Origin: a candidate division TM6 bacterium GW2011_GWE2_36_25
GTDB lineage: Bacteria > Babelota > Babeliae > Babelales > UBA12409
Direction: 5' to 3'
Assembly: GCA_000991575.1 (NCBI GenBank)
Contig: LBRU01000009.1
Location: 698-64,697 of the forward strand
DNA: 64,000 nucleotides
The position numbers and the translations under genes are program-made. This document shows, one piece after another, positions 6,127 through 36,716 of the stretch (the stretch's first letter is position 1; every line of letters begins with the position of its first letter). The notes beneath the pieces are model-generated. The model worked only from the letters and a program-made list of their open reading frames with translations. It was not told the DNA's origin and ran no database searches.

Positions 6127-6372
6127 ATGAAAAAGATTTTTATTTCATTACTTTTAATTATGTTATGTACCCCAAAACAAACTAAGCCTAACGGGGAAGG
6201 CCTTGGCATTGGTCTCGGCGTAGGCGCCTTAACCGGTATCGCCATTGGTGCCGCAGCTTCAAGATCTCGTGAACCAAAAGTAGTTTATGTAAGAGCGCCA
6301 GAAAACGATGAAGAAAATGATGAATACACTGATGACGATGATTACCAATCATTTGATGAACAAGATAATTAA
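6127..6372 (+). CDS. small secreted glycine-zipper protein with acidic tail
   Basis: RBS AAGGAG upstream, a signal peptide, a GLGIGLGVGALTGIAIGAAAS zipper, and an acidic C-terminus (ENDEENDEYTDDDDYQSFDEQDN). Its last codon and stop lie inside the repeat element beginning at about 6367. Confidence 0.5.
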   Translation: MKKIFISLLLIMLCTPKQTKPNGEGLGIGLGVGALTGIAIGAAASRSREPKVVYVRAPENDEENDEYTDDDDYQSFDEQDN

Positions 6373-6577
6373 GAACCTCGCAGCAAGCTACGAGGTATAA
6401 CGCTCGTATGGTTCGACTTGCTACATCCTGGGCAAAGTCGAAGGGTCACCACGAGCGCGCTCATCCTGATGCTTCGTCTGCGCTCAGCACTAAAGGCTGC
6501 GCTCATCCTGAGCTTGTCGAAGGATATGAGCGAATATAATGATTATGAAGCAAGCTTCGAGGAGTTTTACCTGTAAA
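6367..6577. repeat. composite hairpin-repeat element, family 1 (copy A, 211 bp, contains one 42-bp unit)
   Basis: It aligns end to end with the reverse complement of 20775-20943, with about 10 substitutions plus one extra 42-bp unit (TGCTTCGTCTGCGCTCAGCACTAAAGGCTGCGCTCATCCTGA). It contains the hairpin modules CGCTCGT...ACGAGCG and CGCTCAT-CCTGAG-CTTG-TCGAAGG-AT-ATGAGCG (6500-6532). Confidence 0.85.
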
Positions 6578-8004: not shown

Positions 8005-10305
8005 ATGAAAAGTTCACGTTTTTTGAGCATATTTTTATTATGCTCAACACTTCTTAATACTCAGATAACAACCGCAATGGATGGCGCTGATCAACAACAT
8101 CAAAGTACACAAAGCTCTTCCGAAACACACGTTTCAGAGGAACCCTCATCACCAGAGACACCCCCAATAGATGAACAAATTGAAACATCTTCAGAAACAC
8201 CTGTGTCAGAAGAGGCCGAAGAACTCGTATCACCAGAGAGATCCCAAATAGATCAACAAGTTGAAAACATTCCTTCAGAAACACATTTGGCACAAGAGGT
8301 TATTGAAGAAGATACATTTCATGAATCAGAAGCTGAAAGCGAAATGCCTGCAATTCAATTTGATGATGAACTTTCAGTATCGGATGAAAAGCCAAAACGA
8401 TCTATTCTATTTTCACTTCTATCTTCATTCATTAACTGGGGTGGTCATATCGTTGGAAACGCCCTGGCTGAAGGATTAGAAGAAGTAAGAAGAATGGTAA
8501 TTCAAGAAGCGGCACGAAGGGGTCAAAGATATGTTGCGGGCAAAGTAGTTACTTTAGCCCAAACCGCAGCACCCCATATTATGAACGCAACACACTCTAT
8601 TTATCGTAAATCATATGATTTTTCTGATAGGCACCCCGTTCTCTCATTATTCACACCTTCAACACTAGCAACTCTTTCTGGAATAACGGTCGCCTCCCTG
8701 GCCGCAAAAAGCGACTTAGTGCCAACCTGGGTAAAAGTTCTCGCTGTTGGTGGAGGAGCTTACTTTGGCGCACTTCAATTAGAAGCACCGTTTCAAGTTC
8801 TTCGTGGCAAACGCTTTTTCATACAACAAGATCATCAAGATTCTCCATCTCTTGAAGAAATCTTTCGATCACAACCAAGAATAATTACAAAAATTATTGA
8901 TACATTACGTGATCAAGATCTTTATGGTGGCTTTTATTATGAAACAAATGGCACAATCTCAGTCTACGGTGAAAATTCTTCAGCTGAAGATAAGCGCAAT
9001 GTTATCAGAGCAATTGCTCGAGAAGCAAACATACCCGTCTTCTTTATAACAAAAGAAGATTTTGAAAATTCTCCAGAAAATGCTCTTAATACCGTACTCA
9101 AAATCATTAAAAAAGCAGATGCCGCAGCTTTTGCTTATAATACCACCTGCTCATTTGTCTGTTTTGAGAACTTCATGGAATTGTTTAATGAATATGAAGA
9201 AATAAGAAACTTGATATCAAGCATTAGATTATGGAACCCATTATATTCTCTTCACCGCATCATATTTTGGGGCATAAATCAACAAGAATCACATGATGAA
9301 CGTCTGAGAGATCAGTTCTTCTCATTTAAATTACAGCTTACACAATCAAGCGAAGGCCATGAAGCAGCGGCCCCATCATTAAAAGTAATACCTCAACATA
9401 TTCCAACCTTTAAGCCAATTAATTTTAGGGAAGACAAGAAAAACGAATTACCATGTTATGAAGCTAGCGATTTAACACTCGAAGATATTACTGGCGGTTA
9501 TCCTGAAGCAATCGAAGTAATTGTTCATGAATTATCAACTCAGACCCCTGGCCAAGGTGCTGATGGAGTCTTATTATGGGGAAAACCCGGCACCGGAAAA
9601 ACAAGACTTGCTCGTGCATTAGCCGGAACATTTAATGTGCCCTTTTTTAACGTTAAGATTTCACGCGTATTACAAGAAGGAACAAACGCAGGAAACTTCA
9701 TCAATGCTCTTTTTGAAAATGCACATAAAAAAGCAATCAGTGATAAGTCAAAATATGCAATTATATTTTTTGATGAATGCGACAGTCTCTTGCAACCACT
9801 TTCTAAAATAACAGATCCAACTATACGATCAGCAAACGTTGCTCTTCGTTCACAATTGAGTGGTTTCACGCAAGACAAAAAAGTTATCTGTATTGCTGCT
9901 GCAAACTCATCACCGAATAAATTAGATGAAGCATTGCTTCGACCAGGAAGATTTGGCACCCACATTCACTTCAAATTACCCAATGCACAAGCTCGTCAAG
10001 AAGTACTGATTTATTACTTATCAGAAATGGAAGATCCTGCGGAAGCTCAAAGAATTGGGAAAAATTTTGTATACGATACCAAAGGGTTTTCTCAAGCAGA
10101 CCTTGAACAGCTCGTTAAAGATTCAAGACGATGGGCAGAAGCATTTGGCTCAACCATCGAAAAGCAACTACCAATCGTATTATCCAATATGAAAAAAAGC
10201 AAAAATCGTGTCACTAAAGACAGATTGGAAGATGAAGCTTATGCGTATTCATCATCAGAAGATGAGGATGATGTTTTAGGCACCGGCAAAGAAGAAGTAG
10301 AATAA
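8005..10305 (+). CDS. membrane-anchored AAA+ ATPase with signal peptide and acidic N-terminal repeats
   Basis: Walker A GKPGTGKT, Walker B IIFFDECD, and second region of homology ...LDEALLRPGRFGTHIHFKLP. There is an N-terminal signal peptide, about 2.3 copies of an ~80-bp acidic repeat (SSETHVSEE..PE..IDEQIE; 8110-8300) and two central hydrophobic segments. No protease domain is present. Confidence 0.8.
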   Translation: MKSSRFLSIFLLCSTLLNTQITTAMDGADQQHQSTQSSSETHVSEEPSSPETPPIDEQIETSSETPVSEEAEELVSPERSQIDQQVENIPSETHLAQEVIEEDTFHESEAESEMPAIQFDDELSVSDEKPKRSILFSLLSSFINWGGHIVGNALAEGLEEVRRMVIQEAARRGQRYVAGKVVTLAQTAAPHIMNATHSIYRKSYDFSDRHPVLSLFTPSTLATLSGITVASLAAKSDLVPTWVKVLAVGGGAYFGALQLEAPFQVLRGKRFFIQQDHQDSPSLEEIFRSQPRIITKIIDTLRDQDLYGGFYYETNGTISVYGENSSAEDKRNVIRAIAREANIPVFFITKEDFENSPENALNTVLKIIKKADAAAFAYNTTCSFVCFENFMELFNEYEEIRNLISSIRLWNPLYSLHRIIFWGINQQESHDERLRDQFFSFKLQLTQSSEGHEAAAPSLKVIPQHIPTFKPINFREDKKNELPCYEASDLTLEDITGGYPEAIEVIVHELSTQTPGQGADGVLLWGKPGTGKTRLARALAGTFNVPFFNVKISRVLQEGTNAGNFINALFENAHKKAISDKSKYAIIFFDECDSLLQPLSKITDPTIRSANVALRSQLSGFTQDKKVICIAAANSSPNKLDEALLRPGRFGTHIHFKLPNAQARQEVLIYYLSEMEDPAEAQRIGKNFVYDTKGFSQADLEQLVKDSRRWAEAFGSTIEKQLPIVLSNMKKSKNRVTKDRLEDEAYAYSSSEDEDDVLGTGKEEVE

Positions 10306-13637: not shown

Positions 13638-15101
13638 TTATTGCCAACTTTTTCTTAAGAAGTTTTTATATGCATCAAATATTTCTCGATTTTGGCTTAA
13701 CTTCTGCCTTATCTGTTTAAAGGCAAAACGCTTAATTTCTTCATTTTCTAATTTGAGAAATTCGGGCAAGAAATCAATAAACCTAATAGCATCTTCGGTA
13801 TAAACCGTCTGTTCTAATATAAAGCGTTTTATAAATTTTATCACACAAGACATTCTTCGGTCTTCTTGAATTTCATTTATATTTCTCACAATTTCATGAA
13901 CCATTTCCAGATTATTGTTTGAGTAAGCGTACTTTAACAAATCAATGAGAGATCGAGGGTTTATTTTTTCTGCTCCTTTTTTCATGAGTAAAAGAGCAAT
14001 TTTTATATTTCTGAGTGTATCACGATGGATTCCTTTTGTTGCAAAATCTAATACAGACCAACCTTCTGCATCGGTAAGAGTAATATTCGCCCGGAACCTT
14101 AGAAGCTCTTTGGCGGTTTTTCTATTTGCAGATAAAGCGGCGCTCATTAAAGCGGTAACGCCATCTCTGTTTGCTCGATTAATATCAGCACCATTTTCAA
14201 GAAGTAAACGAATAATTTCCGGAGTACCAAGTTCTGCGGCAAACATCAATGGTGATATTCCTGCTCGATAGACAAGAATATCACGTTCATATTTATAGGG
14301 ATCATTTGGATCCAGACCCTTTTTTATGAGCGCTTCAACAGCTATGACGTTATGAGAATGAATAGCAGTAAATAAAGGTGGTTCGCTATATGGCCCATGA
14401 GGAGTTCTAATATCGGCACCATGATTAATAAGAATTTGAACGATTTCGTTGTATCCATGCATTATAGCAAATTGTAAAAGAGTAAGGCGATCAGAGGAAA
14501 AAGAAGTGTCGTTGAGATTAAAACCAGGCATCATTACCAAATGTCTTGTTTGTTCTATATTGTTATTTTTTACTGCTTCGATTAATTGCATTTGACTATT
14601 AGAGGCACCATGATCGAGAAGAAGTTGTGCCATTTCAGTATATCCCTGAGCTCGTGCAAATTCTAAAAGAGTATGGCCTTCAAGCATTAACGACCAAATA
14701 TTGAGTTCTATACCGGGTATTGTTATAAGATCATGTGCACGATCTATATTGTTATTTTTTACTGCCTCAATTAATTTCATTTGACTATTATATGCACCGT
14801 GATCAAAAAGAAGTTGTGCGATTTCCGTATACCCATGACTTTGAGCAAATTCTAAAAGGGTAAGCCCTTCAATTGTTAAATAACAAGTATCGAGGTTAAT
14901 ACTTCCACTTGTGATAAGCTCCGATGCCTGCTTTACATTATTAGTTTTTATTGCTTCGATTAATTGTTCAGTGAGCCATTCGGTGGTGCGGAAAAATCTT
15001 GCAATTGATAAAGGCAGATGGTCCAAAAACTCAGCTTGTGCCGGCGATAAGCCCAAAAAATTATTGACAAAAAGGAGATTTTTAAAATTTTCATATCGCA
15101 C
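13638..15101 (-). CDS. ankyrin-repeat protein
   Basis: Multiple ANK consensus stretches (TPLMFAAELGTPEIIRLLLENGADINRANRDGVTALMSAA). In addition there are three ~62-aa tandem repeats (LIEAVKNNNI...LLEFA.A.GYTE.AQLL.DHGA). Confidence 0.85.
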   Translation of the reverse strand: MRYENFKNLLFVNNFLGLSPAQAEFLDHLPLSIARFFRTTEWLTEQLIEAIKTNNVKQASELITSGSINLDTCYLTIEGLTLLEFAQSHGYTEIAQLLFDHGAYNSQMKLIEAVKNNNIDRAHDLITIPGIELNIWSLMLEGHTLLEFARAQGYTEMAQLLLDHGASNSQMQLIEAVKNNNIEQTRHLVMMPGFNLNDTSFSSDRLTLLQFAIMHGYNEIVQILINHGADIRTPHGPYSEPPLFTAIHSHNVIAVEALIKKGLDPNDPYKYERDILVYRAGISPLMFAAELGTPEIIRLLLENGADINRANRDGVTALMSAALSANRKTAKELLRFRANITLTDAEGWSVLDFATKGIHRDTLRNIKIALLLMKKGAEKINPRSLIDLLKYAYSNNNLEMVHEIVRNINEIQEDRRMSCVIKFIKRFILEQTVYTEDAIRFIDFLPEFLKLENEEIKRFAFKQIRQKLSQNREIFDAYKNFLRKSWQ

Positions 15102-18045: not shown

Positions 18046-18480
18046 TTAGTTAACAAAGGGCAATTTATTCCAAATATGAGCAACACTAGATTTTACTTTA
18101 TCTCGCGTTTTCCAAAGTAATGGCATCGATGCCGTCACACATAATGCAGAAAGTGCATAAGGGTGTGTTTTGCAAAATTCAACAGTGCTTTTTGATGCAC
18201 GTAAAAGTGCATCTTGCGCATGGCTCATACCTTCTTTTGCTGACTTAACAACCGCACGCACCCCCTTTACTACTCTAATAGTGTGCCGCAACCTTCTTAC
18301 TTTTGTTGGTGCTTGAGCGATAAGGTGACCAACATTTTTCACGTGCTGCGGAACCTTTTTTATTGCCTCCTTCATCACAATCATTTTTTGGCGAACGGGA
18401 GCAATATTAATGGAATTACGAGCATCAATTGAAAAGAATAACAAACTAAAAAGCGAAAGAATAATTATCTTTCTGTCCAT
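18046..18480 (-). CDS. secreted paralog family A, member 1
   Basis: It has a signal peptide. The C-terminal half (AQDALLRASK...LLWKTRDKVKSSVAHIWNKLPFVN) is paralogous to 18546-18953. Confidence 0.5.
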   Translation of the reverse strand: MDRKIIILSLFSLLFFSIDARNSINIAPVRQKMIVMKEAIKKVPQHVKNVGHLIAQAPTKVRRLRHTIRVVKGVRAVVKSAKEGMSHAQDALLRASKSTVEFCKTHPYALSALCVTASMPLLWKTRDKVKSSVAHIWNKLPFVN

Positions 18481-18545
18481 AGAAGTTCCTCCATTATCAA
18501 TTCTTTTGAAGATAAAGGCCCCTCTACACGAGAGGCCTCATCATT

Positions 18546-18953
18546 TTATTTAACAAAAGGTAATTTCTTCCACATTTTTACAAATGCTGATTTTACCTTA
18601 TTTCTTGTCTTCCAAAGCACTGGTGTAGCTGCAGTAACAACGATGGCTGTTACGACACAACGAGGATGCTCGTAAAAAGCTCCGGCAACACGCCCGGAAG
18701 CAAACATTAATGCATCTTGAGCTTTTGCAAAACCATGTTTTGCTCCAGATATTACTTGTTTTGGAGCAGCATAAATTCCGCTCGCTATAGTGCGTGATGC
18801 ATTGGCAACATGATGAACGCGACTTTCGCAAAATTGAACCGTGCCATGAGCACCATTTTTGCAAGAAGAGATAACACCATCCAATGTAATGGCATTCAAT
18901 GATGAAAGTGATAATAAACTAACAACTGAGAGAACGATTGTTTTCTTATTCAT
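18546..18953 (-). CDS. secreted paralog family A, member 2
   Basis: I place the start at MNKKTIVLSV (ATG 18953), not at the track start 19007. The C-terminus ...AQDALMFASG...VLWKTRNKVKSAFVKMWKKLPFVK is paralogous to member 1. Confidence 0.5.
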   Translation of the reverse strand: MNKKTIVLSVVSLLSLSSLNAITLDGVISSCKNGAHGTVQFCESRVHHVANASRTIASGIYAAPKQVISGAKHGFAKAQDALMFASGRVAGAFYEHPRCVVTAIVVTAATPVLWKTRNKVKSAFVKMWKKLPFVK

Positions 18954-19016
18954 AATAATTCCTCCATAAAAAAACAAATTAATATTTTTAATCGCACATT
19001 GGAGCACAATAATTAT

Positions 19017-19310
19017 TCAAAAAACTAACTCCATTGGAATCAATTGGTTGCATTTCTGTTTGTACTTCAGCATCGACACAACGGGATTTTGCATAATCCA
19101 ACCCTTAAAATATGCTCGTCTATTTTTGAGTTTGATACATGCGGCCACCGTTAAAGCGCCACCACATGCAATATATCCTGCAAGTATTTTCAAACCATAA
19201 CGGTCTAAAAAACGCCCGCACTGAGCAAGAACCGGTTCACAAATACCTGCTTGTATTGAAGACAATGAAACTAAACTTAACAACGAAAGAATAAGTATTT
19301 TCTTATTCAT
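19017..19310 (-). CDS. secreted paralog family B, 46-bp-deletion variant (frameshifted C-terminus; possibly decaying)
   Basis: Start placed at MNKKILILSLL (ATG 19310). It is near-identical to 19345-19692 up to ...RRAYFKGW. After that a 46-nt deletion relative to the neighbour changes the frame. Confidence 0.45.
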   Translation of the reverse strand: MNKKILILSLLSLVSLSSIQAGICEPVLAQCGRFLDRYGLKILAGYIACGGALTVAACIKLKNRRAYFKGWIMQNPVVSMLKYKQKCNQLIPMELVF

Positions 19311-19344
19311 AATAATTCCTCCATAAAAAAACAAATTAATATTT

Positions 19345-19692
19345 TTAATCGCACAAAAAACTAATTCCATTGGAATCAATTGGTTGCGTTTCTGTTTGTA
19401 CTTCAGCATCGACACAACGGGATTTTGCATAATCAATCTCCATTTGCAACTTTTCCCTTCCATAGTTGTATCCTTCATTCCAACCCTTAAAATATGCTCG
19501 TCTATTTTTGAGTTTGATAACGGCGGCTAAAGCTAAAGCACCACCACACGCAACATATCCTGCAAGTATTTTCAAACCATTACGATCTAAAAAACGACCG
19601 CACTGAGCAAGAACCGGTTCACAAATACCCGCTTGCAATGAAGATAAAGACATTAAGCCTAAAAGAGATACTACCAAAGCCTTCTTATTCAT
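19345..19692 (-). CDS. secreted paralog family B, full-length member
   Basis: MNKKALVVSLLGLMSLSSLQAGICEPVLAQCGRFLDRNGLKILAGYVACGGALALAAVIKLKNRRAYFKGW... It has a signal peptide followed by a TM segment. Confidence 0.5.
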   Translation of the reverse strand: MNKKALVVSLLGLMSLSSLQAGICEPVLAQCGRFLDRNGLKILAGYVACGGALALAAVIKLKNRRAYFKGWNEGYNYGREKLQMEIDYAKSRCVDAEVQTETQPIDSNGISFLCD

Positions 19693-19710
19693 AATAATTC
19701 CTCCATGTTT

Positions 19711-20190
19711 TTAGCCAATATGACAATCCATAACGCCTGATTGCACCATGCAATACAGAGCCTCATTAACAAACTCATCGCTTTCCATAATTTGTTTCTC
19801 TAAATTTTTTAATTTTAGAGAAAAATCTTTCCATCTTTGTTCAAGAAAAAGATATTTATCGCTATACACATGCTTATTCAGATCACGCACACAAGCCAAT
19901 AATGGATAAAGCGAATGACTAAACTTTTTTTGTACAGCAAAAATAATGTGTGATGTTTTCTTTAGAGACAAAATTTTTTCATAGAATTTGTGCAAAGCTT
20001 CAAATTCTTTTCTCAATTGAACATGCTCGCGATGCAGTGATATGAAGGCACAAGAAAAGATAATTGCACATACGCTCGATGTACAAACTACTTCAGGAGC
20101 AAAACTTTCAAGAAAATCCCTAGATAATCCAGAATAATTAGATTGGAAAATAAATAAGAATAATACCATCAACCACTTTTTACTTATCAT
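19711..20190 (-). CDS. hypothetical protein with N-terminal hydrophobic segments
   Basis: 159-aa ORF in the same orientation as the surrounding cluster. No family recognised. Confidence 0.4.
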   Translation of the reverse strand: MISKKWLMVLFLFIFQSNYSGLSRDFLESFAPEVVCTSSVCAIIFSCAFISLHREHVQLRKEFEALHKFYEKILSLKKTSHIIFAVQKKFSHSLYPLLACVRDLNKHVYSDKYLFLEQRWKDFSLKLKNLEKQIMESDEFVNEALYCMVQSGVMDCHIG

Positions 20191-20230
20191 CTAAAAAACC
20201 TCTACTTAGGGAAATGGGTACAAACGCCAA

Positions 20231-20632
20231 TTATTTTTCAGAAACCGTCCCCTTTAACATATCAATTACATAGGTACCTGGTTTTTTTACCACTACTTTT
20301 ACTGAACGTTTATGTAAATATCCCAAACCAAAACCTGTTATTACACAAAGAACTTGCTGTTTCCATGGAGATAAAGCATCCCATTGTTTTTTATATTCGA
20401 TACTTTTTTCTTTGATATACGTACACCAATCACCCAAATCTTTTATTACTGATGAGGATGTAGGAAGAACTGCTCCTGAGGCAATTGAATTTATTTGTTC
20501 AGATACCTGAGATTCAGGCACAGACGCAAGAGATGCACCATCTTTATCTGACGAAGAACCATTTGGCACTTCAGCGTAAAGGGAAAGTGAAAAGAAAGAA
20601 CCTAAAAGAAGTGTCAATGAAATCTTATTCAT
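20231..20632 (-). CDS. secreted paralog family C, member 1
   Basis: It has a signal peptide and shares the motif W(D/N)xLSxxKQxxLCxxxGxxLG (QWDALSPWKQQVLCVITGFGLGYL) with 21242-21880. Confidence 0.5.
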   Translation of the reverse strand: MNKISLTLLLGSFFSLSLYAEVPNGSSSDKDGASLASVPESQVSEQINSIASGAVLPTSSSVIKDLGDWCTYIKEKSIEYKKQWDALSPWKQQVLCVITGFGLGYLHKRSVKVVVKKPGTYVIDMLKGTVSEK

Positions 20633-20774
20633 AAGTTTTCCTCCATTTGAAGTTATACTAATAGTTTACCTTTTTTTAAAAAAAACTCAAGAAAAACGGG
20701 GCTTTAAAAACCCCGAATAAAAGTGGTTAAAAACAACACAAATTTAATAAACGTTGAAATAGGCTATTTAATTG

Positions 20775-20943
20775 TTTATAGGTAAAATTCCTCGAAGCTT
20801 GCTTCGCAATCATTGTATTCGCTCATATCCTTCGACAGGCTCAGGATGAGCGCGCTCGTGGTGACCCTTCGACTTTGCTCAGGATGCAGCAAGTCGAACC
20901 ATACGAGCGTTATACCGCGTAGTTTGCTATGAGGTTCTTAATT
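20775..20943. repeat. composite hairpin-repeat element, family 1 (copy B, 169 bp, inverted relative to copy A, lacks the 42-bp unit)
   Basis: Its reverse complement aligns over its full length with 6367-6577, apart from the single 42-bp unit. Confidence 0.85.
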
Positions 20944-20960
20944 GGAAATAAAAACAAAGC

Positions 20961-21194
20961 ATTCACCATGAGCGAGCTTGAAACGGAGTGAAAAGTGAGT
21001 CGAATGGTTTTATCGAACGCTCTTCGTTAAACTTTCTTTGTAATTCAGAAAAATAGAAAACTTTATCGTGCGTTCGGTGAGACCCTTCGAGACACTCGCT
21101 ACGCTCGTTCCTCAGGGCGAACGCGTTAGGTAAAATGGTAAGAATGAAGAATGCGTTCGCCCTGAGCGAAGTCGAAGGGTTTTATCGAACGCGA
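20961..21194. repeat. cluster of three family-2 hairpin modules (fwd 20961-21020 degenerate, rev 21068-21125, fwd 21151-21194)
   Basis: The modules share GCGTTCG..CCTGAG..TCGAAGGG..CGAACGC with the arms at 28155-28300 and 32403-32763. For example, 21152-21192 reads TGCGTTCGCCCTGAGCGAAGTCGAAGGGTTTTATCGAACGC. Confidence 0.75.
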
Positions 21195-21241
21195 GAAGTA
21201 AAAATTATCTTAAAATAAGGATATCAACAATTATCGTAAAT

Positions 21242-21880
21242 TTATTTTTCTGATTTACCAGCTTCTTGAGAAGAAGCATTATCATCAGGTATAAACTTTT
21301 CCGATACTTCAGTTTCTTCTTTTCTCTCAGTTGAAATTTCTTCAGGTTTATAAAAGCTGCTCTCTTTAAAATCATCCCAAATATCTCGTCCAACCGCATA
21401 TAACCCGGCTAAGGTTGCACCCGCAACAGCCATTTTTACCGGAAATCGCGCAACTTTACCTAAAACAATGCCTGATCCTAAACACAAGAGATTTTGCTTC
21501 GTAGATGATAAACCATTCCAATACTGTTGTGCTCTTTTTCCACAAACAAGACTTTTACCTAAAAATTCAACGCTTTCTTTCTTGAATGATCGATAAAAAT
21601 TACGACTTTTCTCATTCAAAGATGTACAAATTTGACAACGCTCCACACTCACCTCAGGTGAAAAGTCGGTTAAAGGAATAACCAAATCTTCTCCTAACCC
21701 CATAGGCACAATACCGGTGCTTGGTAAAAATTCAATTGGTTCAACCTTTTGAGCTTCAGAAATCACTTGAACCTGAGAACCTTTAAAAAATCCTGATAAG
21801 TATTCAAGCGGATTGAAAGCCTGAATTGAAGAGAGTGAAAATAAGGTTAAAAGAGAGAAAACTAAAATTTTCTTATTCAT
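21242..21880 (-). CDS. secreted paralog family C, member 2
   Basis: Signal peptide MNKKILVFSLLTLFSLSSIQA and the motif YWNGLSSTKQNLLCLGSGIVLGKV. The C-terminal tail is acidic. Confidence 0.5.
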   Translation of the reverse strand: MNKKILVFSLLTLFSLSSIQAFNPLEYLSGFFKGSQVQVISEAQKVEPIEFLPSTGIVPMGLGEDLVIPLTDFSPEVSVERCQICTSLNEKSRNFYRSFKKESVEFLGKSLVCGKRAQQYWNGLSSTKQNLLCLGSGIVLGKVARFPVKMAVAGATLAGLYAVGRDIWDDFKESSFYKPEEISTERKEETEVSEKFIPDDNASSQEAGKSEK

Positions 21881-22099
21881 AAAGAACCCCCATTAAAAAT
21901 TTATATTTAACGTTTTCATTCTACCAAAACTGCCAAAAATTGCAAGAAGAATTTAAAGTTTTACTTTTAGTTTTTAGAGGATTGTCGAGATATCAAAATA
22001 TTTTCTTTGAAAAATATTCAAACACCTTTTTTAAAAAGTTTTTAAAATTTTGATGCAATACATTACTCCTGTTACACTAATTCTGCGTAAAGGAGTTTT

Positions 22100-24289
22100 A
22101 TGGATTTCGCTGAATTTTTATCAACCGAATTAAATAACGAACAACAAAAAGCGGTTAGGCATGCAAAAGGACCTCTTCTGGTTATTGCGGGTGCAGGCTC
22201 AGGCAAAACGCGTGTTATAACCAGTCGCATTATCAACCTTATACTCACCGAAAAAGTTACTCCAACTTCAATTATTGCATTAACGTTTACTAATAAAGCT
22301 GCCCAAGAAATGCGTGAACGCGTACAAAAAAGCATTGGCATACCGGCCACTCCTTTTAAAAATAACAGTTTTTTTATTGGAACTTTCCATTCTTATTGCT
22401 TGCGACTTCTTAAAAAAAATGCACACATTTTAAAACTCGATCATTTTTCCATTCTCGATGGCGATGATCAAATAAGCATGTTAAAGAAATTAGTTGATGC
22501 GCATTGCCCTAAAAAAATTCAACCACGCCAAGCTCTTTATCAAATATCCACCCTCAAAAACAATCTCCTCAACCAGCAAGAAACACTCATTGATCCTACC
22601 GTACAAGAACTTTATAATTTATATGAACACGAAAAAAGATTAAGCAACTGTTTAGATTTTGACGATTTACTCATTAAAGCACTTGAACTTTTCAGCTCAA
22701 AAAATTTTAAAACAGCACACCAAAATCATATTCGTCATGTTCTTGTTGATGAATATCAAGATACGAATGTTGTGCAAAATGAATTGCTCAAAGAAATGTG
22801 CCTCGATAAAAAAAAATTCATCATCGATTCACTCTGTGCCGTAGGAGATGAAGATCAATCTATTTACTCATGGCGTGGTGCAACGATTGATAATATGCTC
22901 AATTTCAAAAAAGATTTCCCCGGAACAACACTCATAAAAATTGAACAGAACTATCGCTCAGTAAAACCAATTCTTGAAGCGGCAAATCATATCATTAAAC
23001 ATAATCAAAATCGCCATCCGAAAAAATTGTGGTCAACACGTGAAGGCTCAAACAATATTTTGGAGCTTACGTGCATGTCCGGATTTCAAGAGGCGGATAT
23101 GATTGCGGCAAGTGCTTCATTGTTACAACAAAAAAATGAATTACAAAATTGTGCAGTCCTCTACCGCACCCATTTTCAATCACGTCTTATTGAAGAAGCA
23201 TTAATAAAAAAATCAATTCCGTACAAAATTATCGGCGGCATTCAATTTTATGAACGCAAAGAAATTAAAGACCTGCTCGCCTATTTACGTTTATTAATTA
23301 ATCCTTTTGATAGAATTGCGCTTTTTAGAATACTCAACTGCCCTCCTCGCAGATTGGGTGACAAATTCGCAGAACAATTTCAAAAAGCATGGGAACAAGA
23401 ACCATTTCAAACATTTACTGATATTGCACAAAAACTTTTAGAAGATTTAAAACCTCAACAAAAAAGCAACCTTGAAGATTTTATTAATATTTTCTCATCG
23501 ATAGATCTCTCTTTTTCCCCTGCGCACGCAATCAACCACATGAGCAAAAAATGTGGTTACCTCACTTATCTTAAGGAAGAGTACGAACCCCAAGAAGCAG
23601 AGGCACGCATTCAAAACATTCAAGAATTAATTAATGCTGCTCGCTATTTTGAAGAACAGGGATTAGAAACCACTGAACAATTTCTTCAAGAAATTGCCCT
23701 TTTACAAGATAAAATTAACCAAGAAAATAACACGAACGAACGCCTAACCCTCATGACTATTCACGCAGCAAAAGGACTCGAATTTGACACAATCATTCTT
23801 GCAGGGCTCGAAGAAGGACTCTTGCCCAGTTCAAAATCCCTCGAAAATGAGTCAAATATCGAAGAAGAGCGACGATTATTATATGTAGGTATCACAAGGG
23901 CACGCAAAAAATTAATTCTCTTACAAGCAGGATATCGACACACTTTCGGTTCTATGACTTATCAACAACCCTCTCGCTTCCTCAAAGAACTACCCAATAC
24001 GGGCATTCAGAGGGAAGATTGCTCATATTGGAAAGAATGTCAGACAATTCAATTTTTACGCAGTTTTTTCGGCATAATAGCACCAGAACAGTCAATCCAA
24101 ACCTTTGGCCCCGCAAAAAAATTTAAGGCAGCCTCTAAAAAAGATCTGCACTCGTATCCTTCGACAAGCTCAGGACGAGCGCAGCCTTTAGTGCTGAGCG
24201 AAGCCGAAGCATCAGGACGAGCGCAGCCTTTAGTGCTGAGCGAAGCCGAAGCATCAGGACGAGCGCAGCAGGACGAGCGCAGCCTTTAG
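22100..24289 (+). CDS. uvrD: UvrD/PcrA-family ATP-dependent DNA helicase, helicase core; reading frame terminated inside a repeat array
   Basis: Motif I GAGSGKT, motif II VDEYQDTN, YRS, and motifs V/VI (TIHAAKGLEF...YVGITRARKKL). The final ~45 aa are translated repeat (SGRAQPLVLSEAEA). The TAG stop at 24287-24289 is created by a 14-nt partial repeat unit. Confidence 0.9.
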   Translation: MDFAEFLSTELNNEQQKAVRHAKGPLLVIAGAGSGKTRVITSRIINLILTEKVTPTSIIALTFTNKAAQEMRERVQKSIGIPATPFKNNSFFIGTFHSYCLRLLKKNAHILKLDHFSILDGDDQISMLKKLVDAHCPKKIQPRQALYQISTLKNNLLNQQETLIDPTVQELYNLYEHEKRLSNCLDFDDLLIKALELFSSKNFKTAHQNHIRHVLVDEYQDTNVVQNELLKEMCLDKKKFIIDSLCAVGDEDQSIYSWRGATIDNMLNFKKDFPGTTLIKIEQNYRSVKPILEAANHIIKHNQNRHPKKLWSTREGSNNILELTCMSGFQEADMIAASASLLQQKNELQNCAVLYRTHFQSRLIEEALIKKSIPYKIIGGIQFYERKEIKDLLAYLRLLINPFDRIALFRILNCPPRRLGDKFAEQFQKAWEQEPFQTFTDIAQKLLEDLKPQQKSNLEDFINIFSSIDLSFSPAHAINHMSKKCGYLTYLKEEYEPQEAEARIQNIQELINAARYFEEQGLETTEQFLQEIALLQDKINQENNTNERLTLMTIHAAKGLEFDTIILAGLEEGLLPSSKSLENESNIEEERRLLYVGITRARKKLILLQAGYRHTFGSMTYQQPSRFLKELPNTGIQREDCSYWKECQTIQFLRSFFGIIAPEQSIQTFGPAKKFKAASKKDLHSYPSTSSGRAQPLVLSEAEASGRAQPLVLSEAEASGRAQQDERSL

Positions 24290-24644
24290 TGCTGAGCGAA
24301 GCCGAAGCATCAGGACGAGCGCAGCCTTTAGTGCTGAGCGAAGCCGAAGCATCAGAACGAGCGCAGCCTTTAGTGCTGAGCGAAGCCGAAGCATCAGGAC
24401 GAGCGCAGTCTTTAGTGTTGAGCGAAATCGAAGTATCCGCGCAACCCTCAAGAGAAAGCCATTTTTCAATTCAACATTCCTCTAACAAAAATTTCAATCA
24501 CCAAAAAATAAATTTTTCTGCGAAACACAATACTCCAATAAATAACGATCTAAAAAAGAATAGCAATTACCCCCATAATTCAATTAACACAAAATTAAAA
24601 ACGCACAACGACGCGCTCGTCCTGAGCTTGTCGAAGGATACGAG
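24151..24644. repeat. repeat-bounded insertion inside uvrD/pcrA: 32-bp perfect inverted repeats (24151-24182 / 24613-24644) enclosing a 42-bp tandem array and an AT-rich core
   Basis: Left arm CTCGTATCCTTCGACAAGCTCAGGACGAGCGC is the exact reverse complement of right arm GCGCTCGTCCTGAGCTTGTCGAAGGATACGAG. Both are family-1 hairpin modules. Confidence 0.85.
24171..24436 (+). repeat. 42-bp tandem repeat array (6 units plus one 14-nt partial unit at 24255-24268)
   Basis: The unit is CAGGACGAGCGCAGCCTTTAGTGCTGAGCGAAGCCGAAGCAT. Units start at 24171, 24213, 24269, 24311, 24353 and 24395 (the last is degenerate). Confidence 0.9.
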
Positions 24645-24828
24645 CACATCGATGTGCTTTCAAAAATGTGAATACTCATGGAAAAAGCATCAACCGGTTA
24701 CGCACAAAACATTTGGTGTTGGAGTAATTCAAGATGTAGAAAAAAGGCCGGATGGTTCAACACACATCACGGCCAAATTTAAAAATGGTATCAAAAAAAT
24801 TGATAGCAAATTTTTAGAAGCAGTTTAA
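24289..24828 (+). CDS. uvrD: detached C-terminal segment of the same UvrD/PcrA helicase (different frame)
   Basis: It ends in WKKHQPVTHKTFGVGVIQDVEKRPDGSTHITAKFKNGIKKIDSKFLEAV. This is the conserved PcrA/UvrD C-terminal Tudor-like domain (W..G..V.H..FG.G.V......V.F...G.K.L...F). It has no start codon or RBS of its own other than a GTG inside the repeat. Confidence 0.7.
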   Translation: MLSEAEASGRAQPLVLSEAEASERAQPLVLSEAEASGRAQSLVLSEIEVSAQPSRESHFSIQHSSNKNFNHQKINFSAKHNTPINNDLKKNSNYPHNSINTKLKTHNDALVLSLSKDTSTSMCFQKCEYSWKKHQPVTHKTFGVGVIQDVEKRPDGSTHITAKFKNGIKKIDSKFLEAV

Positions 24829-27878: not shown

Positions 27879-28154
27879 ACTCGATCTTCTTCTACATTAG
27901 CAAAATTCATTTTTGAAAATAAATAGTTTTAAAAAAATAATCTTATTTATTCGACTCAGTGATTGTTATTCAAAATATAATTATGAAAGAACTTTTAAAA
28001 ATTTCGGGTTTAATAAATACGTTATCATAGACCTCTTCCGAAACAATAAAGCACTCAAACGTTTTTAACGTTGCCCCTATTAATGCTTATATTGATAATC
28101 AAGAAGTTATTCACCATAAATAAATTTGATAATAAAGGTTGAATTTGACTTCAC

Positions 28155-28300
28155 GCATTCGCCATGAGGAACGAGCATAGCGAGTGTCTCGAAGGGTTTT
28201 GCCGAACGCACTTATTAAGATAAATCCATAATGTTACTCAGTGTACGTGTTCGATGAGACCCTTCGAATCGCCATTATAATGGCTCCCTCAGGGCGAACG
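28155..28300. mobile_element. MITE-like internal-deletion derivative of the GIY-YIG element (two inverted family-2 arms, 29-bp core)
   Basis: The arms are 28155-28211 and 28241-28300. The core TTATT/AAGATAAATCCATAATGTTACTCAG matches the first 5 nt (32463-32467) and the last ~30 nt (32674-32702) of the interior of the 32403-32763 element. Confidence 0.7.
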
Positions 28301-28377
28301 GAAGAAAAGCACCTTAATATAAAACAATCGAATATTAACCTGACTTAAATTTCATTGTCTCGGAAGAGATCTCATCT

Positions 28378-29508
28378 TTAATGAAACATAGTATTATAAA
28401 AACATTCTTTAATAGATTGTTGAACCTTTAAGTCTTTTGCATCAGCGATCAACTTATCAACAAACAGATCTTGTGCACTTTTTTCTTCGGGCTCAAGAAT
28501 CTGATGACGGAACACCTTAAAATTTTCATTTGGCTCACAAACTACTTCTGGATCCATCACAATACGTTTTTCAACTAAACCAACTCCCGTTATCTTCTCA
28601 ATTATCGCTGCTAAAGGCTTCCATAGCCGATGATGTTCTAGAGGGGTCCCGCCCGAAATAGCTGTATAAACCAATTGAGGAATTAACTCATTTTGTATAA
28701 GAAAATGCAAAAATAAACCATTTTTTATTCTTGGTATCTCAGTATCAGGAAAAGACAAATTATAATCACTAAGTAAAGATTTTAATAAAGTCCTAAGTGG
28801 AAGATTCACTGATCGACTTTTCGTATAAAGATGAAGGAAAAAATAAAACCATGGCTCCCTGGCAGCTGAAAGAATTTCTGTCCGTACAAAATCATCAGCA
28901 TCATGTATTCTACCAGGCCTCATCTTTTTGTATTCTTCCACGGTCATTCCTCTTAAATGTTCTACTTTTTTACGCGAACGAAGAAATTCAAAATCCTTAG
29001 GCTCCACCCCAGTCTGTAATTGATAAAGCTTTTTTTGCAAGTCTAATAAAAGAGCAATTCTGCCATCTGCAGCATGAAAAAATGATGTATAACCCGGATA
29101 TTTAACCTCGGTTTCAATTATTTGGGCAATTAATTCTGTAACATTTTCATAATGCTTAGGCTTAAGTAAACATGGATGCTTAATCAAAGAAAGAAATCTA
29201 AGAGCAGACAACAATGGTAATTGCATTTTTATAAATTCGCGAAGGTTGAACTTTTTACATCGAAAAGGAGACGCAATCAACCAAGGGAACAATCCTTTCT
29301 CATACAAAAGATTAAATCTTCCCACCTTTTCAACTAATCGACGATATGTTGTCGAACATTGTTCAAGTTCATCACTTTTTTGTTTATCTTTAATTGCCTG
29401 AAACAATCGCAATCCGGCCCCGGCACGATATAATCCACCAAACATCCCATAAGATTGTGGCACTAATAATAAAAGTCCTAAAAATATAAAACGGAAAATC
29501 ATGTTCAA
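28378..29508 (-). CDS. hypothetical secreted protein
   Basis: Signal peptide MNMIFRFIFLGLLLLVPQSYG. Length 376 aa. No family recognised. Confidence 0.45.
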   Translation of the reverse strand: MNMIFRFIFLGLLLLVPQSYGMFGGLYRAGAGLRLFQAIKDKQKSDELEQCSTTYRRLVEKVGRFNLLYEKGLFPWLIASPFRCKKFNLREFIKMQLPLLSALRFLSLIKHPCLLKPKHYENVTELIAQIIETEVKYPGYTSFFHAADGRIALLLDLQKKLYQLQTGVEPKDFEFLRSRKKVEHLRGMTVEEYKKMRPGRIHDADDFVRTEILSAAREPWFYFFLHLYTKSRSVNLPLRTLLKSLLSDYNLSFPDTEIPRIKNGLFLHFLIQNELIPQLVYTAISGGTPLEHHRLWKPLAAIIEKITGVGLVEKRIVMDPEVVCEPNENFKVFRHQILEPEEKSAQDLFVDKLIADAKDLKVQQSIKECFYNTMFH

Positions 29509-29620: not shown

Positions 29621-29986
29621 TCATCTATCTGAACAGCTTTTTTCATGCCTTAAACAGTGATAAAGATCATAAAATCCACTCTTGCAAAATCTACAGAAAA
29701 AATTTTTCTTTTGCAGATGAACTCTTTCAATGTGTGGCCATACATCTCGGGCTCTTGAAAGCATTTTTTTACACATAAGACATTGTCTGGGAGAGAATTC
29801 ATCAACCTTTTCAATTTTGAGTAACTCAGCCCAAAATGAAGAATGTCTTTTAATTTTTATCATTAAATAAGTTTTTATCTCGGGAGACAACAAATCTTCT
29901 TCTTGAGAATTTTCTGATCGATCCATTGCACACGCGCAGGAAACCAAATATAAAAAAAATAAAAATCGATTTCTCATATGAAACAC
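29621..29986 (-). CDS. secreted protein with two eukaryote-type C2H2/C2HC zinc fingers
   Basis: It has a signal peptide. Finger 1 is CLMC-x12-H-x4-H (CLMCKKMLSRARDVWPHIERVH). Finger 2 is CRFC-x12-H-x3-C (CRFCKSGFYDLYHCLRHEKSC). Confidence 0.6.
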   Translation of the reverse strand: MFHMRNRFLFFLYLVSCACAMDRSENSQEEDLLSPEIKTYLMIKIKRHSSFWAELLKIEKVDEFSPRQCLMCKKMLSRARDVWPHIERVHLQKKNFFCRFCKSGFYDLYHCLRHEKSCSDR

Positions 29987-29989
29987 AAA

Positions 29990-30379
29990 TTATCTTTGAT
30001 GCACAAATTCATGCGCATCCCGATTGTACTTTGTGCTATAGAATTTTTCACAAAAGTGACATTTAAAGGGTTTTAATTTTTGATGAGTCCTTTCATGCCG
30101 TTCACACTTTGATCTAATGTCAAAAATTTTACCACATACGGAACATGCAAAGGGCACTTTCTCACATTTTTGCGTACACAACTTCGGCCCTTCACCCACC
30201 TTGTCAGTATCAATCATTTTTCGTCTTTTTTCAGGTTTTTCTTCATGTGCTGCACGAGAAAACATTACTAAACTTTCGGCTGCACGAACATCATGTGATG
30301 TAAGCCTTGTATCTCGTTTCTCCATAGCATTAACTGAAAATACGGCGTAAAATAACATTAAAATAATATTTTTTTTCAT
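29990..30379 (-). CDS. secreted protein with two classical C2H2 zinc fingers
   Basis: It has a signal peptide. CSVCGKIFDIRSKCERHERTH and CHFCEKFYSTKYNRDAHEFVH both fit C-x2-C-x12-H-x3-H exactly. They are joined by a TGEKP-like linker (HQKLKPFKC). Confidence 0.7.
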   Translation of the reverse strand: MKKNIILMLFYAVFSVNAMEKRDTRLTSHDVRAAESLVMFSRAAHEEKPEKRRKMIDTDKVGEGPKLCTQKCEKVPFACSVCGKIFDIRSKCERHERTHQKLKPFKCHFCEKFYSTKYNRDAHEFVHQR

Positions 30380-30443: not shown

Positions 30444-31190
30444 TCATTTAAATCTTCCTCTTAAAATGGCAACTTGAATTGCAAATCGAACGCTCTTACC
30501 TATTTTCAACTTCAAGGCTTCAAGGCTTCCTTTTATATTAAGATTGAGTTTTTTCTCATGAGAAACTAACACTCGCAACTCTTCAAAAATACGCATGTCT
30601 TTTATAACCACATTAAATTGAGTCCGAGGATTAGAACTTACAATAGTCCCCCGAGCAAAAAGCCAAAGAGGAGGATGTTTAATACATTCAAACGCTTCGA
30701 CTATGCTGTTTCTCAGGTGTTCTACAATGACCGGATCATCGGTAGTTTTCAAAATGTGATCTATTTGTTTTACAATCAATCGCACAAGCATGTGATCTTT
30801 TTCGCAAACCACACGCTCCAGATGATTAATACCTATATCTGAAATGATACGAGCCCCTTTATCAAGAAGAAATTTAACTAGGTGATAATTTTTTTGACTA
30901 ATAGCGATCGCTAAAGGAGTTTCACCTCTTCCATCTATCGCATTAACATCAGCCCCTTTTTGCACAAGCACCCGCGCCATATCATACTGCTTATTCTCAA
31001 TAGCACATATCAATACAGTTATTCCATTTTGCTGAGACTCTAACAAAGATCTATCTTGTTCATACTGAGCGATTACGCTCTCAATATTTCCATTTTTAAT
31101 AGCTTCAAAAAATACTATTCTTGATTCCATTGCAGAACAACAGAAAGCAAAAAATAAAACAGATACAAATAGCAGTTTGCACAATTTCAT
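30444..31190 (-). CDS. secreted ankyrin-repeat protein
   Basis: Signal peptide plus ANK repeats (GITVLICAIENKQYDMARVLVQKGADVNAIDGRGETPLAIAISQKNYHLVKFLLDKGA). Confidence 0.8.
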   Translation of the reverse strand: MKLCKLLFVSVLFFAFCCSAMESRIVFFEAIKNGNIESVIAQYEQDRSLLESQQNGITVLICAIENKQYDMARVLVQKGADVNAIDGRGETPLAIAISQKNYHLVKFLLDKGARIISDIGINHLERVVCEKDHMLVRLIVKQIDHILKTTDDPVIVEHLRNSIVEAFECIKHPPLWLFARGTIVSSNPRTQFNVVIKDMRIFEELRVLVSHEKKLNLNIKGSLEALKLKIGKSVRFAIQVAILRGRFK

Positions 31191-32287: not shown

Positions 32288-32399
32288 TCAATTAAGATTT
32301 TTTATTTAGTATAACATGCGCATAAGAAAATGAAGCGCTTGACTGCTTTTAAACCTTTCACATATCAATGTTCATATTGATAATAAACAGTGTATTTGA

Positions 32400-32766
32400 T
32401 TTCTCGCGTTCGCCCTGAGGGAGCCATTGTAATGGCGATTCGAAGGGTTTTATCGAACGCACTTATTTCATAAAACCAGTCCACCCAAACATAATAAGTC
32501 GTTCTTTTTTTTGACGGGTCCATTTTTTTATTTTTCGTTCTGCTGCTAAGACTTCTAATCTTGAAGTAAATTTTTCTGCATAAACAAGTTTAAGTGGCCT
32601 GCGATTAAAAGTATAACATTTATATAAACCCATATTGTGCTCAGAAATGCGTATCATTGCATTTTAAAATATAAAGATAAAATTCCATAACATTACTTCA
32701 GGTGCGCGTTCGATAAAACCCTTCGAATCGCCATTACAATGGCTCCCTCAGGGCGAACGCGAGAAA
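32400..32766. mobile_element. GIY-YIG nuclease remnant framed by perfect ~60-bp inverted repeats (family-2 hairpin arms)
   Basis: 32403-32460 is the exact reverse complement of 32706-32763 (58/58 by manual comparison; 61 nt including the flanking TTT/AAA). The only cargo is the ORF 32463-32657. Confidence 0.75.
32463..32693 (-). pseudogene. decayed stand-alone GIY-YIG (URI/COG2827-type) endonuclease
   Basis: The ORF reads ..ISEHNMG..RRPLKLVYAEKFTSRLEVLAAERKIKKWTRQKKERLI, which matches the C-terminal two-thirds of small GIY-YIG proteins. The same frame upstream reads MLWNFIFIF-stop-NA-MIRIS. This gives an in-frame TAA (32664-32666) and loss of the GIY/YIG segment. Confidence 0.6.
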
Positions 32767-33056
32767 GAAAATTCACTATAAACTACTATAAATCCATCTA
32801 AAGTATATATTATTTTGTTAAGTTTCAGAATTAAAAATTTTTATTGCCTCGAACACATTGGATAAATGCGAGAGAAGGTTGCGTCAAATAAACTGGACAA
32901 CCTATTCAACAAAGTTTTGGCAACGCGTGAAATCTTCTCGTCTCCATCCATTGCTAAAAGCACGATGGTATTAGACGACGGAAAATAAAAAAAAGAATTA
33001 CCAATTTGCAAGCACGCCACATTCCGTGGTAAAAAATAAAAAAATGGGAATCGCTC

Positions 33057-35727: not shown

Positions 35728-36716
35728 AGATCGGCATCATTGGTTTAGGAAAAATGGGAAGCGCAATTGCCACACGACTTGCACAAGGAGATCATGATGT
35801 TATTGGTTATGATCCACATGTAAAAATAACCATTAACCGGGTAAAACAAGTTGACGCACTCCAAGCAATCACTCAACAAGAGATTATTTGGCTTATGGTT
35901 CCTGCAGAAGCCATTGATAAAATCTTGCAAGAACTTACACCCCATTTAATTGAAAAAAACATATTGAAAGGCTGCGCTCGTCCTGATGCTTCGTCTACGC
36001 TCAGCACTAAAGGCTGCGCTCGTCCTGATGCTTCGTCTACGCTCAGCACTAAAGGCTGCGCTCGTCCTGAGCTTGTAATTATTGATGGCGGAAACAGTTT
36101 TTATAAAGATTCTAAAAGACGTGCAAGCACATTGGCAAAATCAAACATTTTTTATCTTGATTGTGGAACCTCTGGTGGCATTCATGGATTAAAAGATGGT
36201 TTTTGTTTAATGATCGGTGGCAATGAAGATGCATTTAAAAAAGCAGAACCCATTTTCGAAACAATTGCAGCAAAAGATGGTTATGCCCTAGTTGGTCCTT
36301 CTGGCGCAGGTCATTATGTCAAAATGGTGCATAATGGAATTGAATACGCGTTACTCCAAAGTTATGCAGAGGGCTTTTCAATTTTACACGCAAGCCGACA
36401 ATTTCCCCATTTAAATTTAGAACAAATAAGTGGCTTATGGATGCATGGTTCAATTATACGTTCCTTTTTACTTGAATTAACTCATGAAATTTTTAAAGAA
36501 AAAATAGATTTTAACAAAATTAAAGGAATAATTGGAGAAAGTGGCACTGGTAGATGGGCACAAGAAGAAGCAAATTTATTAGGCCTTAATACACCGGCGC
36601 TTGAAAGTGCTTTGAAAACGAGAAAAGAATCACAGATAAAGGGCGACTCGTTTACCATGAAACTCATCGCCCTTTTACGAAATAAATTTGGTGGCCATCC
36701 TGTTGAAAAAGAATAA
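35724..36716 (+). CDS. gnd: 6-phosphogluconate dehydrogenase (short, YqeC/Gnd-like form) carrying an in-frame repeat insertion
   Basis: MKIGIIGLGKMGSAIA Rossmann start, IIDGGNS, GTSGG and GAGHYVKMVHNGIEYA. A 36-aa insert (KGCARPDASSTLST x2 plus KGCARPEL) sits directly before IIDGGNS. Confidence 0.85.
   Translation: MKIGIIGLGKMGSAIATRLAQGDHDVIGYDPHVKITINRVKQVDALQAITQQEIIWLMVPAEAIDKILQELTPHLIEKNILKGCARPDASSTLSTKGCARPDASSTLSTKGCARPELVIIDGGNSFYKDSKRRASTLAKSNIFYLDCGTSGGIHGLKDGFCLMIGGNEDAFKKAEPIFETIAAKDGYALVGPSGAGHYVKMVHNGIEYALLQSYAEGFSILHASRQFPHLNLEQISGLWMHGSIIRSFLLELTHEIFKEKIDFNKIKGIIGESGTGRWAQEEANLLGLNTPALESALKTRKESQIKGDSFTMKLIALLRNKFGGHPVEKE
35967..36076 (-). repeat. 42-bp unit array (about 2.6 units) inside gnd, opposite orientation to the uvrD array
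   Basis: ATGCTTCGTCTACGCTCAGCACTAAAGGCTGCGCTCGTCCTG occurs at 35986-36027 and 36028-36069, with partial units on both sides. It is the reverse complement of the 24171-24436 unit with 3-4 substitutions. Confidence 0.85.

Follow-up and report, generated by a model that had tools for sequence, protein, structure and literature searches.

A short terminal-inverted-repeat-bounded locus in a Dependentiae (TM6) genome, probably a gene-less deletion copy of a small transposable element carrying a GIY-YIG nuclease gene

At positions 28029-28372 of the stretch of DNA that we analyzed (64,000 nucleotides; referred to here as the window) lies a 344-bp locus bounded by 18-bp terminal inverted repeats (TIRs), whose longest ORF encodes 35 amino acids and which contains no transposase ORF. 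Within it, two arms of one hairpin repeat family (family 2) stand in inverted orientation, 29 nt apart; their positions in the initial annotation of the window, 28155-28211 and 28241-28300, were confirmed. The features of the locus and of its relatives are listed in Table 1.

Table 1. Features of the short locus, related repeats in the window, and loci elsewhere with a GIY-YIG gene next to hairpin arms
Feature	Position	Strand	Remarks
Target-site duplication (TSD), left copy, CAT	28026..28028	.	Directly outside the TIR
Outer TIR, AGACCTCTTCCGAAACAA	28029..28046	+	Right end in the orientation of the lost gene; exact match to AGAYCTCTTCCGARACAA
Flank between TIR and downstream arm, GAAGTCAAATTCAAC...TTGATTATCAATAT...	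28047..28153	-	Collinear with full copies L129 and L131
Downstream arm	28154..28211	-	Abuts the stop codon; core GAGACACTCGCTATGCTCGTTCC; hairpin degraded
29-nt core	28212..28240	-	Spacer sequence TTATTAAGATAAATCCATAATGTTACTCA
Stop-codon remnant in core	28212-28216	-	AATAA on the - strand, TTATT on the + strand
Start codon and four codons in core	28217-28229	-	ATGGATTTATCTT
Leader remnant in core	28230-28240	-	
Upstream arm	28241..28306	-	Core GCCATTATAATGGC; inverted pair I13
Flank between upstream arm and TIR	28307..28354	-	Collinear with L129 and L131
Outer TIR, AGATCTCTTCCGAGACAA	28355..28372	-	Left end in the orientation of the lost gene; exact match to AGAYCTCTTCCGARACAA
TSD, right copy, CAT	28373..28375	.	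2 nt before the stop codon of ORF 28378-29508(-)
ORF-less inverted arm pair	20962-21020 / 21068-21125	+	47-nt spacer; collinear with the short element, score 113
Third arm of that cluster	21143-21195	+	Cluster 20962..21195; no TIRs nearby
Related long copy, upstream flank type 'X'	32389..32777	-	Arms 32389-32460 / 32706-32777, inverted pair I8
Arm stem sequence			CCCTGAG/TCGAAGGG
GIY-YIG gene and arm loci	L001:9470-9860; L133:1335-1915; L136:1415-1858; L137:1300-2340; L140:1425-1960		
GIY-YIG gene and arm loci	L170:930-1320; L171:900-1320; L172:840-1320; L173:460-910; L032; L098; L115		

The window is AT-rich, with about 36% G+C, and its TrpRS protein is identical on groundwater-metagenome contigs and in the Candidatus Dependentiae (TM6) assemblies GCA_003511635.1 and GCA_000991385.1; all of the evidence on the element comes from metagenome assemblies. 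Among the neighboring genes are some for ankyrin proteins and others for small proteins that match C2H2 zinc fingers weakly, a gene content that fits an intracellular lifestyle. Next to an ankyrin-repeat protein (30444-31190) lie two adjacent small ORFs at 29621-30379 (minus strand), with hydrophobic N-termini and C2H2 zinc-finger-like motifs. These ORFs may encode eukaryote-like effectors; their Pfam matches (zf-H2C2_2 and zf-C2H2_4) fall below the curated cut-offs. Elsewhere in the window, we noticed five paralogous small minus-strand genes with conserved 5' ends (TCTTATTCATAATAATTCCTCCAT) at 18419-21925 and a 189-nt tandem repeat of 2.2-3 copies within a coding region (14407-14966).

Read on the minus strand, the core between the arms consists of a leader remnant, followed by ATGGA-TTTATCTT and then AATAA, which represents the last 2 nt of a gene and its stop codon. 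The string AAGATAAA(AT)TCCAT in the core is the reverse complement of the true gene start ATGGAATTTTATCTT, taken from an intact 87-amino acid GIY-YIG gene in sister assemblies; the core codons read MDLS* here versus MEFYL in the intact gene. The core string reported initially runs one nucleotide too far, into the G at 28241, which is a trivial difference. When the core was compared by Smith-Waterman with both strands of the entire window, its best non-self match was 32661-32705 (score 30; background mean 11.6, sd 2.5), and the next-best unrelated match scored 25. As had been proposed, the core resembles both inner edges of the GIY-YIG element at 32.4 kb, the MAFFT alignment showing one large internal gap, and 0 of 5000 shuffles of the edge matched in the scan reached the observed score, so the core is closer to that edge than to shuffled sequence. 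The earlier deletion estimate of ~206 bp is correct relative to the long copy in the window. Relative to the intact gene, about 244 bp of the 264-bp gene are missing; the two values differ because the long copy in the window itself lacks 38 nt.

The TIRs, TSDs, and flanks are outer features that lie beyond the arm-to-arm boundaries drawn initially. Only two exact matches to the TIR consensus AGAYCTCTTCCGARACAA occur in the window, and these bracket the short locus; the two TIRs are identical to each other at 16 of 18 positions. Another TIR-like match, at 8115-8126, lies inside a coding region and was rejected as a chance occurrence. The TIR pair is present at every locus with a complete copy of this type (L124, L129, and L131, all on other contigs). 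Flanking direct repeats, which the initial annotation had left as a point to check, were found at the short locus (CAT/CAT), and the other copies have their own, AAT/AAT for L124 and L129 and TAGT/TAGT for L131, the latter being a duplication of 4 bp instead of 3 bp.

A different contig of the same assembly carries a paralogous copy, L124, and L129 is its intact counterpart in a sister strain; both are homologous to the 28-kb locus well past both arms, until the 18-bp inverted repeats are reached. The intact element, 575 bp in L129, is composed of an 18-bp TIR, ~60 nt, a hairpin arm, a 13-17-nt leader, the gene, a second arm located directly 3' of the stop codon of the 87-amino acid gene, ~110 nt, and an 18-bp TIR. 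L131 measures 548 bp from TIR to TIR, and its gene has decayed through deletions; L129 and L131 are 97% identical. The short copy is collinear with both from TIR to TIR and, over shared columns, 88-90% identical to them. The 344-bp sequence of the window recurs without any difference in four other assemblies, produced by different pipelines, in the same gene context.

The two arms of the short copy have unlike cores, a feature that had been attributed to local recombination between sub-variants. This explanation fails, as the same pair is already present in L129 and L131 (a GCCAT..ATGGC inner hairpin upstream and ACACTCGCTATGCTCG downstream), and the short copy therefore inherited its mixed cores. 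Recombination among copies does occur in the family, since some members are mosaics: in L132, the left TIR is found with other arm types, and in the 32.4-kb copy, an upstream flank of the second type is joined to a downstream flank resembling that of the TIR-bounded copies. The L132 copy (L132:7800-8280) is 5'-truncated and interrupted downstream, and the adjoining ORF, beginning MDDFCKFLSKETR..., encodes what we take to resemble an IS982-type transposase.

The arms of the short copy fold no better than shuffled sequence (z = +0.8 for the single-stranded downstream arm). They are degraded, and the copy may be inert; both its divergence and its lost arm folding mark it as an old copy. One copy of the short form is known; a metagenome scan with the stop-codon/arm junction returned four loci, all of which carry the gene. 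Given this single example, decay in place is as possible as amplification as a MITE, and we regard it as equally possible that the short copy moved after the deletion.

The element at 32.4 kb had been taken for the autonomous parent of the short locus. Our comparison does not support that assignment, as this copy holds a frameshifted pseudogene (32463-32688) between its arms (72 nt, 96% complementary), has another upstream flank, and lacks the TIR pair. Compared with L001 to L003, it is missing 38 nt (GAATCTTATTATATTGGGCACACAGAAAATCTTGAAAA), a loss that shifts the frame and removes the YIG motif. The same loss is found in GCA_000991385.1 (L128), where no intact GIY-YIG copy was seen, and it is absent from three near-identical sister assemblies. 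In sister assemblies, the 32.4-kb locus holds an intact 87-amino acid counterpart (L001:9550-9813), which starts with ATGGAATTTTATCTT and ends in AAATAA against the downstream arm. The 64-amino acid ORF reported initially (32463-32657) is an out-of-frame remainder, with a Pfam match limited to positions 26-76 of the 78-position GIY-YIG profile. Both arms of the 32.4-kb copy are of the GCCATTGTAATGGC type, and its upstream flank is common to L130 and to an interrupted copy in L129. We conclude that the 32.4-kb copy is a cousin of the short copy and not its parent; the true parent type is seen on other contigs only (L129 and L131).

The intact 87-amino acid protein matches Pfam GIY-YIG (PF01541) at 1.7e-19, with no match to Y1_Tnp, and is similar over residues 1-79 to the UPF0213 structures 1ywl (EF2693; 6e-15) and 1zg2 (BH0048; 9e-14). 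It has the YYIG, Arg-26, Glu-29, and Glu-62 motif positions, whereas the long copy in the window is without the YIG segment. The protein consists of the catalytic domain only, with no DNA-binding domain; its single GIY-YIG domain, its size, and its similarity place it among the Slx1-like (UPF0213) proteins. The structures 1ywl and 1zg2 have been assigned to the bacterial Slx1 family, described as minimal, stand-alone, and mainly vertically inherited, with selfish GIY-YIG enzymes derived from the other (UvrC+) lineage (PMC1564403). Searches of the intact protein against PADLOC gave nothing meaningful and against NCBIfam no match; PHROGs gave a weak match (2.5e-4 over 27 residues), and a protein scan of viral contigs found no relatives. 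Among intact copies at three loci, dN/dS is 0.08-0.15, and the protein is therefore under purifying selection. Single copies decay quickly, as seen in the 38-nt frameshift in the window, the deletions in L131, the 5' truncation in L132, and, in L124, the truncation of an arm and an in-frame loss of 27 nt. Purifying selection together with fast decay of individual copies is the pattern of a selfish gene.

A nested insertion bears on the mobility of the parent type. One 575-bp TIR-bounded copy lies within the ORF of another GIY-YIG copy, in the opposite orientation and with ATT as its target duplication (L129:4780-5354; also L124:1139-1662). Excising it together with one ATT gives ATGGAATTTTATCTTTATATTCTTAAATGCATGGATGAATCTTATTACATCGGACAC..., which reads MEFYLYILKCMDESYYIGHTENLAKR and aligns without gaps to intact genes; the restored site acts as a paralogous empty site. 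The interrupted copy around the insertion also has a large 3' deletion that extends into its arm. Because removing the nested copy and one ATT restores the reading frame, the parent type transposes. Full-length homology, TIRs with TSDs, and transposition of the parent type are established by these comparisons.

Seven arms at three loci in the window (~21.0, 28.2, and 32.4 kb) match TCGAAGGGTYTYRYCGAAC with at most 3 mismatches, where 0.12 are expected by chance. Arms that are well preserved form hairpins (z = -2.7 and -2.95), with GCGTTCG/CGAACGC and CCCT/AGGG stems closing a variable inner hairpin; the single-sequence fold statistics are modest overall, with z ranging from 0 to -4.8. At other loci, the boxes CGTTCGCCCTGAG and TCGAAGGGT surround unrelated inner hairpins (TTTTTGC/GCAAAAA, TCCTAC/GTAGGA, GCCGC/GCGGC, and CCCGC/GCGGG), indicating that the structure is kept while the inner sequence is replaced. 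At gathering thresholds, Rfam returned tRNAs only across the window, a search of 27950-28450 gave nothing at E ≤ 1, and promoter and terminator scans of the element did not rise above shuffles. The window also contains a second GC-rich repeat family (6367-6577, 20775-20943, 24128-24645, and 35967-36090) that includes 42-nt tandem units, with up to ~7 tandem copies of the unit at 24.1-24.4 kb. Its box TCCTGAGCTTGTCGAAGGA is also that of the arms beside GIY-YIG genes in Proteobacteria; the window contains no GIY-YIG gene of the proteobacterial-arm type.

The layout of a GIY-YIG gene between hairpins recurs elsewhere. At 16 of 16 loci examined, spanning two phyla (Dependentiae and Alpha-, Beta-, and Gammaproteobacteria), an Slx1-like (UPF0213) GIY-YIG gene adjoins hairpin arms with the boxes CGTTCGYCCTGAG...TCGAAGGRT, and at most of them inverted arm copies bracket both sides of the gene. 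The Dependentiae-like, low-G+C loci are L133, L136, L137, L140, L125, and L134. The arms are 127 nt and 91% complementary in L133, where the 3' arm begins at the stop codon, and 39 nt and 97% complementary in L136; L134 has a pair of arms upstream, and L125 has the downstream arm only and adjoins a second gene fragment between copies of another repeat family. This fragment (L125:2488-2768) encodes 46 amino acids of a different GIY-YIG subfamily (YVYILCSK...GTLYIGVTNN) and is bracketed by the inverted repeat TCCTGTCATCCTTGCGTAAGCGAGGATCC (38 nt, 95% complementary), a hint that repeat families may differ with protein subfamilies.

Several proteobacterial loci were picked by protein alone, namely those of Ca. 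Nitrotoga arctica, Methylobacter sp. YRD-M1, CP024202, and a Sphingomonas plasmid; the proteobacterial protein query returned 3692 clusters at E ≤ 1e-10. The arm motif alone led to three further loci (L032, L098, and L115; 3 of 119 loci among the matches listed), each with arms on both sides of the gene within ~100 nt. At proteobacterial loci, overlap of the 3' arm with the ORF end is common. A scan of genome contigs with the arm pattern TTCGCCMTGAGN{5,35}TCGAAGGGT, which is too loose, gave mostly GC-rich genomes among the matches listed. The arm motif also occurred in 26 viral contigs, in none of which the gene lies close to it. The arm-gene-arm module is also found with other flanks in related genomes.

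We consider it probable (about 0.72) that 28029-28372 is a complete, TSD-flanked and TIR-bounded copy of a small Dependentiae (TM6) transposable element that lost its only gene through a 244-bp deletion. The initial description of the locus as a MITE-like internal-deletion derivative of a GIY-YIG-carrying element is borne out and is strengthened by the TIRs, the TSD, and the collinearity with full copies. It had, however, been combined with a model in which the GIY-YIG protein is the transposase, so that the full copy would be autonomous and the short copy its non-autonomous MITE. That model can draw on GIY-YIG being the sole credible ORF in the 575-bp TIR-bounded unit, on the two TIRs that the short copy shares, and on a protein that is held under purifying selection while its copies decay, as is the case for IS transposases; we nevertheless regard it as unlikely. 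An 87-amino acid bare catalytic domain that lacks a DNA-binding domain is a poor candidate for a transposase. GIY-YIG enzymes are hydrolytic nucleases, and we know of none that performs strand transfer. In addition, the module of gene and arms is found without these TIRs in many genomes, which places the TIRs outside the conserved unit.

The remaining explanations concern how the arm pair itself came about. If the short form were an ancestral empty arm pair and the GIY-YIG gene had entered such pairs by homing, the locus would be a target and not a derivative, with the arms offering homology for gene conversion; ORF-less arm pairs at 20962-21125 in the window, whose 47-nt spacer is weakly similar to the gene start, and at L063 could be read in this way. 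We find this very improbable, as the core holds an ATG with four codons and a stop codon. Those codons specify the first strand of the GIY-YIG fold, and homologues in unrelated contexts have conserved them (FYLYILKC in L136); they therefore belong to the gene and not to a target. Two arms that landed head to head independently, in a REPIN-like manner, might also produce such a locus, given that the arms occur singly and clustered and that the genome is AT-rich enough for a coincidental core similarity. This is ruled out by the shuffle test, the best match of the core in the window being the edge of the gene, and by the collinearity with full copies, which reaches ~110 nt and ~60 nt past the arms to the shared TIRs. 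Finally, a repeat collapsed during assembly deserves mention because the source is a groundwater metagenome-assembled genome and such repeats often break assemblies, but the identity of the 344-bp copy in five assemblies excludes an artefact, and its 10-12% divergence from the full copies means that it is not a collapsed version of them.

The deletion-derived copy that we favor is a new variant of known non-autonomous elements. Like MITEs and the internal-deletion derivatives of insertion sequences, it is small, has TIRs and a short TSD, lacks a transposase ORF, and derives by internal deletion from a longer copy with identical ends. It differs in that the longer copy has no recognized transposase, its only gene encoding the 87-amino acid GIY-YIG nuclease; no known type of IS transposase (DDE, HUH, serine, or tyrosine) was found in the 575-bp unit. 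A partner IS with the same ends is not known, and one short copy has been seen. Mobile insertion cassettes, such as MIC231 of Bacillus cereus, are TIR-bounded and carry passenger genes but no transposase.

The arm-gene-arm module, in turn, resembles the REP/REPIN and RAYT systems, in which a small nuclease-type gene lies between inverted GC-rich hairpin repeats and the repeat is also found singly, as inverted pairs, and in tandem clusters, as are the arms described here. A REPIN consists of two inverted hairpin repeats and a short spacer, an arrangement that the short locus reproduces with its 29-nt spacer. In contrast to RAYTs, the enzyme is a GIY-YIG (Slx1-like) hydrolase and not an HUH Y1 transposase, genomes hold several decaying gene copies instead of one domesticated copy, and the module also rides, in this lineage, in a transposon with TIRs and target duplications. 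The gene shares with the free-standing GIY-YIG homing endonucleases (I-TevI and T4 Seg) the GIY-YIG domain, a selfish character, and multiple, often decaying copies, and by analogy spread by breakage and recombination would be plausible for the module as well. Unlike those enzymes, it has no NUMOD-type DNA-binding domain, belongs to the Slx1-like/UPF0213 branch, and is chromosomal in bacteria, not located in a phage or an intron. The module is also reminiscent of IS200/IS605, where imperfect palindromes, potential single-stranded hairpin signals, lie on either side of a small gene; those elements use an HUH transposase and have neither TIRs nor target duplications, whereas the copies described here have both.

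These comparisons suggest the following model. The parent inserts at AT-rich sites with 3-4-bp target duplications. TIRs combined with a target duplication are the signature of staggered-cut transposases, and their presence here points to a putative transposase acting in trans. The TIR-defined unit was most likely moved by such an enzyme encoded elsewhere; among the copies examined, no transposase with the same TIRs was seen. The arm-nuclease-arm module may be a separate selfish cassette that landed in this TIR vehicle. By analogy with Slx1, the nuclease could be structure-specific and cut the hairpins or cruciforms formed by its own arms, and the module might then spread or persist by break-induced, homing-like recombination between arm copies. 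In the short copy, the deletion would have taken out all that lay between codon 5 and the final 2 nt ahead of the stop codon, leaving the two inverted arms 29 nt apart. Because it has kept its TIRs, this copy could still be moved in trans, although it makes no nuclease.

The parent family, an undescribed element, and the association of GIY-YIG genes with hairpin repeats across phyla are the more interesting lead. We found no account of this association in the literature, the scope of our search leaving out subscription-only papers. We propose tentatively, as a possibility somewhat short of an even chance, that Slx1-like (UPF0213) nucleases are the protein partners of widespread GC-rich hairpin repeats and form a second REP/RAYT-like system, based on a GIY-YIG hydrolase and extending from Dependentiae to Alpha-, Beta-, and Gammaproteobacteria. 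UPF0213 GIY-YIG nucleases have so far been regarded as housekeeping repair proteins, and we know of no earlier link between this minimal Slx1-like family and mobile repeats. If the nuclease acts on the hairpins, this would account for a very common class of intergenic repeats in bacteria, which yield spurious 'PELVEG' and 'FDKLRAN' peptides in annotations, and would provide a function for thousands of genes annotated as 'GIY-YIG nuclease family protein.' Were the proposal to hold, the 28-kb locus would be a snapshot of a gene-less inverted-repeat pair born from a gene-carrying unit. The locus is in itself a clean case of a two-inverted-repeat element derived from a gene-carrying one, as the lost gene can still be recognized by its start and stop codons.
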